DNA from: an uncultured Nitrososphaerota archaeon
GTDB lineage: Archaea; Thermoproteota; Nitrososphaeria; Nitrososphaerales; Gagatemarchaeaceae
Length of the DNA: 64,000 nucleotides
Assembly: GCA_963718895.1 (NCBI GenBank)
Contig: CAVRAG010000008.1
Span: 192,001-256,000, forward strand
Reading direction: 5' to 3'
A model generated the notes under the pieces. It was not told where the DNA came from and did not search any database. It saw only the letters and a program-made list of their open reading frames with translations. Positions 36,818 to 40,927 of the stretch are shown here, piece by piece; position 1 is the first letter of the stretch; each line of letters begins with the position of its first letter. A program made the position numbers and the translations under genes.

Positions 36818-37958
36818 ATGTCGGCTCAGGGGGACAGGCTTCTCATACTCGCGGTCGACAGAGATGGAGACCTAGAGAGCAAGACGAGGGTCCGGTCCCC
36901 GGTCTTCGGTAGGGAGGGCGTGCTCAGCGCGGCGACCCAGCTAGCGATCTCTGACCCCGAGGAAGCCGACGCCAACTCGTTCTTCGCTGCGATAAAGGAA
37001 TACGACAGGCTCCAATCGATGAGCGAAGGTTGCGAGATAGCGGTCGTCTGCGGGATAGCCGACAGCGGCGTCGACGCCGACAGGAAGATAAAGCGCGAGA
37101 TAGAGAACATCCTCAGCAAATCCCAGTTCTCGGCGATAGTACTGGTCACCGACGGGGCGGAGGACGAGCAGATACTCCCGATACTCCAGTCGATGAAGCC
37201 GGTCGCGTCCGTCGTCCGGATAGTCGTCAAGCACAGCCGGACGGTCGAGGAGACCTACATGGTCCTCGGGAGATATCTCAGGATGCTGGTCTTCGATCAG
37301 CGCTACTCGAAGTGGGTGATCGGAGTTCCGGGGGTCATCTTCCTCTTTGCGGGAGTGCTCGTGCTCTTCGGCCGCGCCTACGAGGCTGGGATCGCCATCC
37401 TGCTGATCCTGGGTTCCGCTTTCTTCGTCAGGGGTTTCGGCGTGGACAGGTCGGTCGCGTCCATGCTGAGCCAGCGTCCATACGGTTACCTCAGAATCTT
37501 CTCCGCCGTGGCGAGCCTGCTGATATTCCTCGTTGGGCTTTCGAGCGGCTTCACCAACCTCCAGACGGCCATACCCGACATCATGCTGAAGGTCAATGCG
37601 AACCCCGGCCTCTTCCTCACCTACGGGTCCGAGATCGATCGGGACCTATCTTGAGGGCGCCCTGCCCCTGGTCTGGGCCGCCCTCGCCATCTACCTCATC
37701 GGTGCGCTGCTCGCACACCTTGCCAGGGGGAGCAGGAGGGTCTGGAGGGACGCGGTCCTGATTGTCCTCCTCGGCCTCCTGTATCTGCCGACGGACCAGT
37801 TCGCGGTCTACCTCACAGCGCCGACCGCGGAGAACAGCTCGGTCCTTCTCGTGTCCTACGTGCTGGTGGGACTCGCGGTCACCTTCGCCGTCGTCACGGC
37901 GCTCTATGGACGGATACGCAGCCGGAACCCCTTGTCAAGTAGTGACGCAAGTGCTTGA
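36818..37958 (+). CDS. DUF373 family membrane protein (frameshift near 37635)
   Basis: LILAVDRDGD, DPEEADAN and VTDGAEDE motifs; located upstream of uppS. Confidence 0.82.
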
Positions 37959-38733
37959 CTCTTTACTCCGGGCCACGGGAGCCTACAGGTTCTACGAGAA
38001 CAGGCTGAGCTGGCAGGTCGAGGACGGACCCATTCCGAGTCACATCGGGATCATCCTCGACGGAAACAGGAGGTGGGCCCAGGACCGGAGGTATGCAGTG
38101 GACGTGGGCCATGCCCAGGGCGCCGACGTCGTCGAGAAGCTCCTCGACTGGTGCCACGACCTCGGGATCAAGTCGATAACGCTCTACGTCCTCTCGACGG
38201 AGAACCTGCACAGGACCGTCGAGGAGGTTCAGGAGCTCTTCAGGCTCATCGAGCAGAGGCTGACCAACCTCCTCGAGGACGACCGGATCTACAGCTACCG
38301 GGTCAGGGTGAAGGGGATAGGGAAGTTCGACCTGCTCCCGCAGTCCCTGCTCAGCATCCTACGCGAGGTTGAGGAGAAGACGGCGGCGTACGACGGCCAC
38401 TTCCTCAACATAGCGATAGCCTACGGAGGCAGGGCCGAGATCACGGACGTCGTGAAGTCGATCGCAGAGGACGTGAAGAACGGGACCCTTGCCCCCGAGG
38501 CCATCAGCGAAGAGACTATAGCGGGGAGGCTGTACACCTCACACCTCCCCAACCCCGAACCCGAGCTGATCATAAGGACCTCGGGCGAGGAGAGGATGAG
38601 CGGCTTCCTTCTGTGGCAGGGCGCCTACAGCGAGCTGATCTTCATGGACGTCTATTGGCCCGCGTTTAGAAAAATTGATTTGTTGCGCGCAATACGTACG
38701 TACCAAAAGCGGAAACGAAGGCTAGGTAGATAA
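37942..38733 (+). CDS. uppS: Polyprenyl diphosphate synthase (cis-prenyltransferase) with a recoded 3' end
   Basis: HIGIILDGNRRWA, STEN, YGGRAEI and RTSGEERMSGFLLWQ motifs; codon usage changes abruptly after about 38653. Confidence 0.95.
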   Translation: MTQVLDSLLRATGAYRFYENRLSWQVEDGPIPSHIGIILDGNRRWAQDRRYAVDVGHAQGADVVEKLLDWCHDLGIKSITLYVLSTENLHRTVEEVQELFRLIEQRLTNLLEDDRIYSYRVRVKGIGKFDLLPQSLLSILREVEEKTAAYDGHFLNIAIAYGGRAEITDVVKSIAEDVKNGTLAPEAISEETIAGRLYTSHLPNPEPELIIRTSGEERMSGFLLWQGAYSELIFMDVYWPAFRKIDLLRAIRTYQKRKRRLGR

Positions 38734-39145
38734 TCAACGCCTGAACAACCTCTGATGTACTCGTCAACTATCCCCCTGTTAACAGGGGGGCCATTCGAGA
38801 TGACAAAATCAGACTCGGCGCCTCTTATCCCGGGCATGAATCCTCTCATCAATCGAAGATAGCCGATGACAGGTTGCCCTCCCTAACTACGAGCCAGGAG
38901 CCCCGAGGTGTTCGCATTGGTTTTTCCAACAGGATAACTCCAGCCAGCTTGATCATGCCTTCATCATACATTTCTATTCTCAGTCGGGGGTACCAATGAT
39001 TGCCCGGTCCCAGTAACGGATGCTCGCGGCCACCAGAAAGATAGACACGCCCTCTGTTGTAACCTATGGTCCCCTCTCCAGCGACAAGTGCGCCAATCCA
39101 AGCGCGTTCCCATTGAGAAAGGTCCTTCACTGCTCGCTTGGCCAA
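38652..39145 (-). mobile_element. Free-standing single-motif LAGLIDADG homing endonuclease (HE1; 1-nt frameshift near 38872)
   Basis: ERAWIGALVAGEGTI motif and YPRLRIEMYD strand; the frame-corrected continuation YLRLMRGFMPGIRGAESDFVI fits the C-terminal helices; lower GC than flanks. Confidence 0.75.
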
Positions 39146-39194
39146 AGCTTCTATCTCAAGAGATTTCCATTCCTAGGTCTTATGAACACCCACG

Positions 39195-39289
39195 TTCATT
39201 GGATCTCTACTCGAGCCTCTTTCCGCAAGATAGATCTCCTCCGCGCCCTAAGGACCTACCAGAAGAGGAAGCGCAGGATGGGAAGGTGG
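39195..39289 (+). pseudogene. Displaced, decaying second copy of the uppS 3' end (probably the original)
   Basis: Encodes FRKIDLLRALRTYQKRKRRMGR with GC-rich codons; degenerate FMDxYWP-like sequence upstream; TGG where the stop is expected. Confidence 0.85.
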
Positions 39290-39295
39290 CGCGGC

Positions 39296-40046
39296 CTAGA
39301 TCAGGTTCACGAGGAAGCCCACCAGGAAGCCGAGGAAGATGCCGATGTAAGTTACTCTCTGCATGGCGTGGTCCGAGTCCCTGAACATGGACTTGAACAT
39401 GGGAAGTATGGCGTAGAGAATCGCTCCTATCGCCAGTCCGTCGAAGAGCACCGTGAACGCGCCCGAGCTATAGAAGTACCCGACGGCGCCGCCGAGGATC
39501 GTCGGCACGCCGCCGACCAAGAAGAAGGTTGCCATCTCCCAACCGTTCCTGTCCGACCGGCCGAGGAAGGGCGACGCGATCGGAAACCCCTCCGTGATGT
39601 TCTGCATCACGAAACCCACGAGCACCACCAGCGCCGCGCCCGAGAACCCGATGCTCACCGCCAGCGCGCCGAAGACTAGACCCTCTGTGAGGTTCTGGAA
39701 TCCTATTCCCGATGCGATGATAAGGGAGGTCTGAGAGGGACCAAGACCGGTCTTCTTCCTGTGCTCGCTGTAGTAGAGTCCCAGGAATCCAATCCCCAGG
39801 GCCGCGGTGAAGATGCCGTCGTAGTAGGGTGAGGACCCGAGCCCATAGAGGGAGCCGTTGTACATTATGGTCGCCGCATTCCCCCAGACGTCCCCTAGGA
39901 GGAAGATCGAGTATCCCAATCGCGACAGCGAGCAGCGCCTTGTTGGCCATGTCGCTAGTGCGCTTGCGGAGGACTATCGGGAGCGAGATGAGGATCGAGA
40001 GGCCCATCACCGCCGAGAGCAGGATGGTCTCGAGGAAGCTCACCAT
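39296..40046 (-). CDS. ZIP family metal transporter (frameshift near 39912)
   Basis: GIGFQNLTEG and MQNITEG TM4/TM5 motifs. Confidence 0.85.
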
Positions 40047-40057
40047 AAGCCATGCCC

Positions 40058-40113
40058 ATAACATATGTTATATTTAATATGAACGATGTTAACGATAACA
40101 ACTAACAGTGTTA
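40058..40113. promoter_or_regulatory. Two TAACA/TGTTA palindromes in a divergent promoter
   Basis: ATAACATATGTTAT (perfect, 40058-40071) and TAACA-G-TGTTA (40103-40113). Confidence 0.65.
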
Positions 40114-40153
40114 TTAACAGGGGACACGGATTGATTGCGGGGAAGCTGGCGTA

Positions 40154-40927
40154 ATGGCGATGAATCAGGCCGGGATCAAGAGCGAAGAGAGGCTCATACC
40201 GATAATCAGGGCGGCGCTTGCGAAGAGATTGGCTTCGGAGGGGTTCAAGGTGAAGGAGATCGCTGGAGCCCTTAACGTGACCCCCGCCGCCGTGACCCAG
40301 TACGTCAAGAGCAGGCGAGGAACGAACATAATGTCCGTTGGGAAGGTCGATCAGATCGTAGACCCGCTCGCCGACAAGGTCGCCAAGCGCATCCGTTCAG
40401 GCTCGGGCGGGATAAAGACCGTGGAGCTGCTCGAGACGGCGCGCCAGGTCATGGTCATGAACGCCGGCAAGGAGATAGTCGCCAAAGGTCCGGAGGGCCC
40501 TGAAAAGCATCGCTCGCTCGAGCTACTTAGGGCGCGGCTCCAGCTCGAGCTGGGGGCGGCGGAGAACTACCTCGAACTGGCCAACAAAACCGGTGACGAC
40601 CACACCAAGCTCCTTCTCAGGATGATAGCCTCGGACAGCATCAGGCATGCGGACGTCGTCTCGCAGGTGATCTCCTGGCTGGAGGCGGAGAGCGGGCCCG
40701 GGTTCGAGCTCCCTGGGGAGGAGCTGCTGAAGAGCATGCTGGCCCTCGAGGACTCGGCGAACGAGGTCAACCTGCGCGAGAGCATCAAGGTCGGTCACCC
40801 TGTGGCTCGCCTCCTCCTTGAGTGGATAGACATGGACGAGGCGAAGCACGGCAAGATGGTGCTGGGGATGCTCGGTCTGAACAACGCGCGCCCAGCCGGG
40901 CGCGGCGCCCGACCTAGGCGTGGCTAG
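40154..40927 (+). CDS. HTH + ferritin/rubrerythrin-like domain regulator
   Basis: KVKEIAGALNVTPAAVTQYV HTH; paired helices ending in DSIRH and DEAKH. Confidence 0.75.
   Translation: MAMNQAGIKSEERLIPIIRAALAKRLASEGFKVKEIAGALNVTPAAVTQYVKSRRGTNIMSVGKVDQIVDPLADKVAKRIRSGSGGIKTVELLETARQVMVMNAGKEIVAKGPEGPEKHRSLELLRARLQLELGAAENYLELANKTGDDHTKLLLRMIASDSIRHADVVSQVISWLEAESGPGFELPGEELLKSMLALEDSANEVNLRESIKVGHPVARLLLEWIDMDEAKHGKMVLGMLGLNNARPAGRGARPRRG

Follow-up and report, generated by a model that had tools for sequence, protein, structure and literature searches.

A candidate homing-endonuclease element carrying a respelled end of uppS in an uncultured Nitrososphaerota archaeon

Homing endonucleases in cellular genomes are expected to reside inside introns or inteins, which make their insertion into a vital gene harmless. 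A 64,000-nucleotide stretch of DNA from an uncultured Nitrososphaerota archaeon (assembly GCA_963718895.1, contig CAVRAG010000008.1, positions 192,001 to 256,000; hereafter the window) raises the question of whether such a gene can be entered by another route. In this window, the last 22 codons of the cis-prenyltransferase gene uppS recur downstream in a different spelling, and a LAGLIDADG-like frame lies between the two copies on the opposite strand. The original prediction, made from the letters alone, held that a nuclease element had inserted into the end of uppS and repaired the gene with its own recoded copy, an interpretation that as a whole was largely supported by the comparisons below. 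Positions 38665-39220 are very probably a free-standing homing-endonuclease element with neither intron nor intein, inserted at a Phe codon 22 codons before the end of uppS. This would represent a third solution to harmless insertion, in which the end of the gene is replaced by the element's respelled copy. The features of the locus are as follows, with G numbers for genomes (G000 being the one that carries the window), L numbers for loci and P numbers for proteins.

37951..38664, plus strand: uppS (cis-prenyltransferase), native portion ending at the insertion point; Pfam Prenyltransf; third-position G/C in 208/236 codons
38665..39220, no strand: whole inserted element, 556 bp, G+C 0.50 (window 0.62), missing as one block from G001 and G011
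38665..38733, plus strand: tail A, replacement last 22 codons of uppS and TAA stop (38731-38733), in frame, AT-rich codons
38734..39160, minus strand: apparent pseudogene of a single-motif LAGLIDADG homing endonuclease, from tblastn with P0005 and the G227 protein
39161..39220, minus strand: spacer upstream of the nuclease gene, ending where the element ends on the right; aligned collinearly in G010, G002 and G007, absent from the empty alleles of G001 and G011
39221..39289, plus strand: tail B, stranded native end of uppS, 22 codons readable, former stop now TGG
39296..40064, minus strand: ZIP-family transporter gene, convergent with uppS; Pfam Zip E 6.9e-5, below the Pfam cut-off; collinear in relatives

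The two ends of uppS

The reading frame of uppS probably starts with a GTG at 37951. Pfam Prenyltransf matched 37957-38730 with an E value of 3.7e-74 and reached residue 257 of the 258 translated, and the gene was the single match in G000 at E<=1e-20. Tail A (38665-38730, FRKIDLLRAIRTYQKRKRRLGR) forms the in-frame end of the gene, which stops at 38733, and tail B (39221-39286, FRKIDLLRALRTYQKRKRRMGR) is the copy beyond the nuclease frame. The recurrence was confirmed at these coordinates, the two tails being identical in 20/22 residues, 5/22 codons and 44/66 bases. The contrast in composition also stood: third-position G/C was found in 8/22 codons of the AT-rich tail A, against 18/22 in the GC-rich tail B and 208/236 in the uppS body, and at the rate of the body the binomial probability of 8/22 or fewer is 1.4e-8. 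The pair went unreported by a DNA repeat finder (seed 6), in line with copies that are respelled and resemble each other as protein, not as DNA.

A duplication of this kind might stem from an assembly or binning chimera, or the resemblance of the tails might be a matter of chance. G000 is indeed a metagenome-type assembly (80.5% complete, 5.4% contamination) with some apparent frameshifts. However, the architecture is common to five independent assemblies besides G000 (four other genomes and one metagenome contig), and the short-read contigs X3 record 12 (39152-39302) and X4 record 15 (39122-39362), whose runs are possibly from the window's own sample, span the right junction with 0 differences; their coverage is of the right junction only, with the left junction and both nuclease frameshifts outside it. 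As for chance, the 20/22 matching residues fall exactly at the end of the uppS homology. The likelihood of either explanation is therefore next to nil, and the duplication is not a chimeric artefact.

Tail A behaves as a working gene end. It was identical in 63/66 bases to the occupied-allele tails of G010 and G007, compared with 44/66 for the tails of empty alleles, and among G000, G010 and G007 it changed at third codon positions alone, 19/22 of these being identical. The tail of G002 was a GC-enriched version identical in 55/66 bases. Across the copies in G000, G010, G007 and G002, codon positions 1 and 2 were identical at 21-22/22, whereas identity at position 3 fell to as low as 12/22. 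By this pattern of change, tail A appears to be the selected end of uppS, under purifying selection. The R-x-G motif is needed for cis-prenyltransferase activity, and this C-terminal motif lies within the uppS tail, which would explain why an insertion here requires a replacement end. Overlap with the antisense nuclease gene was considered as a cause of the tail A spelling and rejected, given that the stop of the intact nuclease gene in G227 lies just outside uppS; the longer nuclease frames of the window and P0005 appear to result from read-through once a stop was lost.

Tail B had been described in the original prediction as decaying, which held in part. Its stop has changed from TAG to TGG, but compared with the working tail of the closest relative, G001, it carries only 9 base differences, 8 synonymous and 1 replacement. 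The decay of tail B in G000 is thus slight, and since nearly all changes are synonymous, this sequence was probably under selection until recently.

An intron or intein was ruled out, as the original prediction had anticipated. The uppS gene stops before the insert, the nuclease lies on the opposite strand, and Rfam gave zero family matches in 37500-40200 at E<=1.

Empty and occupied alleles at one codon

Among the loci of 29 relatives whose uppS tails were compared, the alleles expected before insertion were found in G001 and G011, whose uppS proteins are 97% and 95% identical to that of the window. Both are empty: uppS ends in a GC-rich tail joined directly to the gene body, and 6-7 bases separate this tail from the end of the convergent ZIP gene. 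The tails of G001 and G011 share 57/66 and 56/66 bases with tail B and 44/66 with tail A. In G010 and G007, by contrast, uppS ends in tail A and the element follows. Collinearity with the window extends over the whole insert in G010 and G002, and the G007 element lacks the segment corresponding to window 38748-39078. As a result, G000, G010, G002 and G007 were classed as occupied (4/18 uppS loci examined in the genus, counting G000), and G001, G011, G005 and others as empty. The element is thus present or absent at one exact site among close relatives, and its boundary is always the Phe codon. The G+C content of the window drops there from ~0.62 to ~0.51 across roughly 38650-39250. None of the other three nuclease copies is intact, with an in-frame TGA and shifts in G010, many changes including GEG to GER in G002, and the deletion in G007.

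The uppS protein had been searched in 41 genomes including G000 and was matched at E<=1e-20 in 37. G012 and G022, with split matches, were omitted from both the tail comparison and the uppS tree, and the distant loci L024-L031 and unlocated matches (among them G026, G032, G033, G035 and G038) were omitted from the tree. The matches that were split or carried an in-frame TGA lie at G012:C5:890170-890944 and in G022:C13 and C14. In G009, a 3-contig genome, the uppS tail (L019) has 1 extra base that shifts the frame after ...LLRAIR, probably an assembly error.

The tails of element-free G015, G004, G021 and G003 (L009, L010, L016 and L017) start with the A-type spelling TTTAGRAAG. At the 12 positions separating A from B-type tails, G015 and G004 carry 5 and 6 A-diagnostic bases, both in a mosaic, and G021 carries 2. 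To judge from the spelling, these tails may be footprints of element loss by recombination between tails, or resistant alleles; equally, they may represent natural variation, or the A spelling may have come from tails like these.

The same site is occupied outside the genus. In G227, from another genus of the family, uppS ends in an A-type tail (third-position G/C 10/22 against 159/214 in the uppS body), and an open antisense nuclease frame of 151 aa follows directly, stop against stop. Its own tail B (FRKIDLMRAMKTYQKRQRRLGR) lies 3 bases past the start of the nuclease frame, retains an intact TAG, and has third-position G/C in 19/22 codons. This element measures 527 bp, with a G+C content of 0.43 compared with 0.55 in the remaining locus, and the next gene is other than ZIP. 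Furthermore, the metagenome contig L065 carries an A-type uppS tail and a broken nuclease gene 46% identical to the query, with what looks like a badly decayed tail remnant, beyond which comes the downstream gene also seen in G227. All occupied cases share one Phe codon as the junction. Among 1.84 billion proteins, P0005, an open frame of 172 aa, shows 64% identity to the window frame in its first 95 residues, and residues 160-167 of its C-terminal extension match the antisense of a uppS tail. A scan of genome contigs with P0005 gave 56 pattern matches and 0 confirmed cases, and a word-based homolog search returned the G227 protein itself alone, 1 among 14 candidates.

Partial duplication of the target 3' end is a hallmark of integrase-mediated insertion, and the locus could accordingly be read as foreign DNA bearing a uppS end and a neighbour gene, introduced by a recombinase or by illegitimate recombination, with the two tails as an att-like duplication and the nuclease as a passenger. 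The location of nuclease paralogs at tRNA genes (see below) is in keeping with such an origin. Yet the inserts measure just 527-556 bp and consist of the uppS tail and the antisense LAGLIDADG-fold gene, with nothing else and no integrase frame; the repeat copies are 67% alike, unlike identical att cores; and the same junction recurs despite nucleases that are only 46-57% identical, which argues for repeated site-specific insertion tied to the nuclease family. We consider a recombinase origin very improbable, and return to insertion by the nuclease itself.

The age of the insertions was assessed from third codon positions and from a maximum-likelihood tree built on the uppS body without its tails (708 columns, 23 rows). 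When G000 is compared with G010, the share of identical third codon positions is 0.64 for the uppS body, 81/98 (0.83) for the nuclease frame and 19/22 for tail A, and the broken nuclease region is 0.87-0.88 identical overall. These element copies are less diverged than the host genes, which points to horizontal spread. The nuclease copy of G002 has a third-position identity of 67/95 and a tail B decayed beyond reading, compared with the nearly intact tails B of G010 and G007, and on these grounds it appears to be older than the copies of G000 and G010. By the third-codon identities and the occupied sites in a second genus and a metagenome lineage, the history of the element differs from that of its hosts, although few genomes stand behind this test. 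In the tree, the empty G001 and G011 form the sister group of G000 (support 97/95). The element probably entered the G000 lineage once this had separated from its closest relatives, and its nuclease broke later, a course in keeping with the homing cycle as usually described, from invasion through fixation to decay.

The same distribution could also reflect a single ancient insertion with vertical descent and several losses, in which a nuclease-like gene was long dead or never the agent and no recent homing occurred. The four occupied genomes of the genus fall inside one clade of 11 (support 100/99), where one gain with losses fits; the TTTAGRAAG tails of the four element-free genomes named above could be loss footprints; and all four nuclease copies are broken. 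On the other hand, broken copies should diverge at least at the synonymous rate, and the nuclease identity of 0.83 against 0.64 for uppS does not conform to this. The comparison of tail B between G000 and G001 implies selection until recently, the decay is uneven between the unreadable tail B of G002 and its nearly intact counterparts, and the same junction codon is used in another genus, with its own intact tail B and a different neighbour gene. A single ancient insertion is thus unlikely, although it has more in its favour than a recombinase origin, and repeated insertion of a homing element remains the preferred explanation.

The nuclease family and its tRNA-Ala paralogs

In the window, the minus-strand frame between the tails spans 38849-39145 and encodes 98 aa with the motif WIGALVAGEGTIG. 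With P0005 and the G227 protein as queries, tblastn extended the gene, placing 39160-38876 in frame -3, 38879-38751 in frame -2 and the last residues in a third frame. Relative to G010 and G002, 1 base is missing near 38877 and 2 are extra near 38748-38750. Upstream there is an in-frame TAG, and a well-placed ATG is lacking, TTG at 39145 being a possible start, and the ancestral stop, TGA at 38734-38736, abuts the uppS stop. With two frameshifts and no clear start, the window copy reads as a pseudogene.

The assignment to LAGLIDADG enzymes in the original prediction received support from a fold model, Foldseek, profile links and a predicted dimer, but not from Pfam, and what the window holds is the pseudogene. 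The motif helix ends in an acidic residue both in the window (WIGALVAGEGTIG) and in G227 (WLGGLVVGEGAIG), and in a five-member family alignment the E, the W and the G-E-G triplet are invariant. Searched against PDB sequences, the family profile matched I-MsoI at E 0.018, with GEG aligned to GDG, and I-CvuI at E 1.1 over 110 positions. Against the 1.84 billion proteins it gave 542 hits at E<=0.001 and 13 at E<=1e-10, and 2 of the 10 hits scanned from among the 542 passed the Pfam LAGLIDADG_1 cut-off. An AlphaFold2 model was made of the G227 protein, a homolog and not the broken window copy (pLDDT 75.7, pTM 0.71), and shows the order helix-strand-strand-helix-strand-strand-helix (H27-40, E41-48, E66-75, H78-88, E92-94, E100-105 and H107-119). 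Foldseek of this model against PDB gave 43 matches at E<=0.001, the top ranks among the matches listed being all I-CreI, I-MsoI, I-CvuI, I-TnaI and I-Vdi141I (probability 1.00, TM ~0.55, 11-17% identity).

The G227 protein was further predicted to form a homodimer through residues 27-40, the motif helix, with a score of 0.70 compared with 0.00 for the best of 3 controls. The runs agreed in at least 100% of contacts, with a partner pLDDT of at least 80. The benchmark mark for such homodimers was reached by 20/30 proteins solved as one-chain pairs and by 1/23 solved as single chains, and a pass may show mere likeness to solved I-CreI-type dimers. On the basis of these models, identification of the nuclease as a divergent single-motif LAGLIDADG enzyme of the I-CreI type is largely supported.

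In the order, the 98-aa frame was searched against 401 genomes and matched at E<=0.01 in 11. By profile, distant members of the nuclease family were located in G020, G010, G022, G001, G019 and G294. At 4/6 of these paralog loci the nuclease gene is antisense to a tRNA-Ala(TGC) gene, and its 3' end either abuts that of the tRNA gene or extends through it; at the other 2/6, a tRNA was not found. The four loci are as follows.

L048 (G020) 1370-1896: nuclease antisense; 3' fragment of 30 nt, 27 identical; one T-stem pair is changed on both sides
L049 (G022) 1346-1892: nuclease antisense; 3' fragment of 21 nt, 19 identical
L050 (G001) 1017-2017: nuclease antisense; 3' fragment of 28 nt, all identical; two tandem nuclease copies
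L057 (G010) 1358-1869: nuclease antisense; 3' fragment not found

A stranded tRNA 3' fragment of 21-30 nt therefore lies beyond the nuclease gene at 3/4 tRNA-Ala loci. As far as can be read from the sequences, the layout appears to be that of uppS, namely the 5' part of the gene, the carried 3' part, the antisense nuclease and the stranded native 3' part, and the gene-end design thus appears to extend beyond uppS. At these four loci, Rfam at E<=0.1 gave only tRNAs and one weak hit (Plastid-ycf2 over tRNA-Ile, 28.4 bits versus a cut-off of 65.7).

At L050 (G001:C6, 1032-1916), the tandem nuclease copies lie in one open frame of 295 aa, and the library protein P0002 has the same form. Together with the identical tRNA parts, the tandem copies may reflect repeated insertion where the target stayed unaltered. 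The tRNA-Ala genes at L057:1897-1994 (minus strand) and L049:1346-1441 (plus strand) are 98 and 96 nt long, with ~20 extra bases at the border of the variable loop and the T-arm, near where the stranded fragments start elsewhere. Folding z-scores of these genes were -1.7 in G022 and -1.3 in G010. A small intron, a long variable arm or a scar might each account for the extra bases.

These observations are consistent with the following scheme. The homodimeric nuclease would cut empty alleles at or near the conserved WP(A/D)|FRKIDL coding sequence, and repair of the break from an occupied allele would copy the element in, with the uppS body as left homology and the stranded tail and downstream DNA as right homology. 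The element's own respelled, AT-richer 22 codons and stop would keep uppS whole, and the displaced native tail would be left behind the element, untranslated. Re-cutting would presumably be blocked by the recoded tail at the left junction and, on the right side, by foreign DNA. The cutting itself, its precise position and the immunity of occupied alleles are all deduced here from sequence. Comparing tail A of G000 with the empty site of G001, 6/18 bases right of the junction differ (counted by eye). A by-eye check for a pseudo-palindrome in the uppS target gave a weak one, which was discarded.

Several points weigh against this reading. With regard to immunity, when the A tails are compared with the consensus of 16 empty sites, only 1-3/13 conserved positions differ in the 18 bases right of the junction, so that immunity by recoding is plausible but not obvious. 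In the tRNA-type element of G001, the carried and stranded tRNA 3' parts are identical (28/28), and recoding is therefore not universal in the nuclease family. With regard to the nuclease, Pfam was blank for the window frame (E<=1) and the G227 frame (E<=10), neither giving a match to the curated LAGLIDADG_1, LAGLIDADG_2 or LAGLIDADG_3; a tRNA-type paralog reached E 0.24 at best against LAGLIDADG_3. The assignment draws on a model of medium confidence and on weak or transitive sequence links. All four nuclease copies of the genus being broken, nothing is mobile in it now, and both frameshifts in the window could be assembly errors, since they lie outside the short-read contigs. With regard to age, third-position identity is a rough clock at a G+C bias of 0.88, and the distribution on the tree needs only 4 changes, which one old gain with several losses also fits.

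Taking both sides together, we lean slightly towards the broader proposition that this archaeal lineage harbours a still-active LAGLIDADG family that, without the help of an intron or intein, invades indispensable genes by way of a replacement 3' end (the respelled tail of uppS; a new T-arm and acceptor end of tRNA-Ala). If true, stranded ends, mosaic-looking tails and tandem copies would record invasion, decay, loss and re-invasion, and such elements might account for some orphan tRNA fragments and for some of the unusual insertions in archaeal tRNA genes. Since empty, occupied, decayed, internally deleted and possibly healed alleles occur in one genus, the homing cycle becomes datable and immunity by respelling testable. 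The open copies in G227 and P0005 are candidates for new meganuclease specificities, with the uppS tail as a defined likely target.

Three further observations concern neighbouring or related sequences. A family member of 175 aa with the motif WLEAAFDGEGNIG lies at L037 (G230:C10) 1150-1677 on the minus strand, where it runs in the same direction as a membrane-protein gene and overlaps the start of that gene, a context different from both uppS and tRNA-Ala. Outside the window, G000 contains weak LAGLIDADG-like matches at C4:316590-317336 and C8:1250442-1251235; that on C4 falls in an open frame of 586 aa, with family-profile E values of 4.7e-6 and 1.8e-4 and a Pfam LAGLIDADG_1 score of 22.3 bits, just under the cut-off. 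The ZIP gene of the window is split over two frames (39296-39919 and 39468-40064) and, compared by eye with G001, has 1 extra base near 39890-39920, either a frameshifted gene or an assembly error.

Relation to known systems

The closest structural relatives of the nuclease, I-CreI, I-MsoI and I-CvuI, share with it a size of ~150 aa, a single motif helix and the order of the fold, and their symmetric dimer through the motif helix is likewise predicted here. The acidic residue ending the motif is common to both, with GEG here and GDG in I-MsoI. Identity is only 11-17%, and those enzymes are encoded in group I introns, whereas the present nuclease lies outside introns. Enzymes of the I-CreI type target rRNA genes, unlike the protein-coding or tRNA gene that is the likely target here. 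In archaea, the group I introns with LAGLIDADG genes reported in PMC6125680 are all in rRNA genes.

The nearest match in design comes from fungal mitochondria, where mobile endonuclease open reading frames (mORFs) form 'gene hybrids', as described for atp6 of Allomyces macrogynus, atp6, atp9, cox2 and nad3 of Glomus, atp9 of Rhizopus and cox2 of Mortierella (PMC3630166). The original prediction had named Allomyces atp6 as a parallel, and the description in this source agrees with it. As in the uppS element, a foreign C-terminus is joined in phase, the endonuclease frame comes next, and the native C-terminus is retained downstream; the two pieces, inserted and native, encode almost the same protein sequence, and the native piece is the one closer to relatives (57/66 versus 44/66 bases for uppS, 91-98% versus 64-81% for Glomus) (PMC3630166). 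The host of the uppS element is an archaeal chromosome, whereas that of the mORFs is an organelle, and the uppS nuclease is antisense, stop against stop, whereas the mORFs at Glomus atp6 and nad3 are in phase with the native gene (PMC3630166). A divergent single-motif LAGLIDADG protein unrecognised by Pfam, and paralogs at tRNA genes, further set the uppS element apart from the mORFs as portrayed there.

Free-standing endonucleases and intronless homing are mostly known from phage, such as SegF, Mob and Seg of T4, in the account given by PMC13565253, and a free-standing LAGLIDADG gene is described from the glycosylation islands of Haloferax chromosomes, with flanks without similarity to any gene (PMC5867893). 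As judged from these two sources, such nucleases resemble the uppS element in having no intron or intein, in targeting a conserved gene that adjoins the nuclease gene, in distinguishing self from non-self by sequence differences in the target gene, and in co-conversion of neighbouring DNA (PMC13565253, PMC5867893). They differ in being intergenic, with no duplicated gene end in the accounts given there, whereas the uppS element lies within a coding region and leaves the displaced end as a fossil (PMC13565253, PMC5867893). A gene-end-carrying nuclease element on an archaeal or bacterial chromosome was not found in the open-access literature searched, supplements excluded. Within the literature searched, the gene-end design is known only from fungal mitochondria, and the present archaeal chromosomal case, as reconstructed here, would be new.

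If the broader proposition of a still-active family is true, its elements would be 'home-and-rescue' drives of natural origin, working within a cellular chromosome. Synthetic drives of the 'cleave and rescue' and 'home and rescue' types combine a nuclease directed against an essential gene with a recoded, cleavage-resistant rescue copy of the part targeted. The uppS element resembles the cleave-and-rescue drives in this arrangement and differs from them in being natural, in having a protein-guided nuclease, and in a rescue of just 22 codons fused in place.

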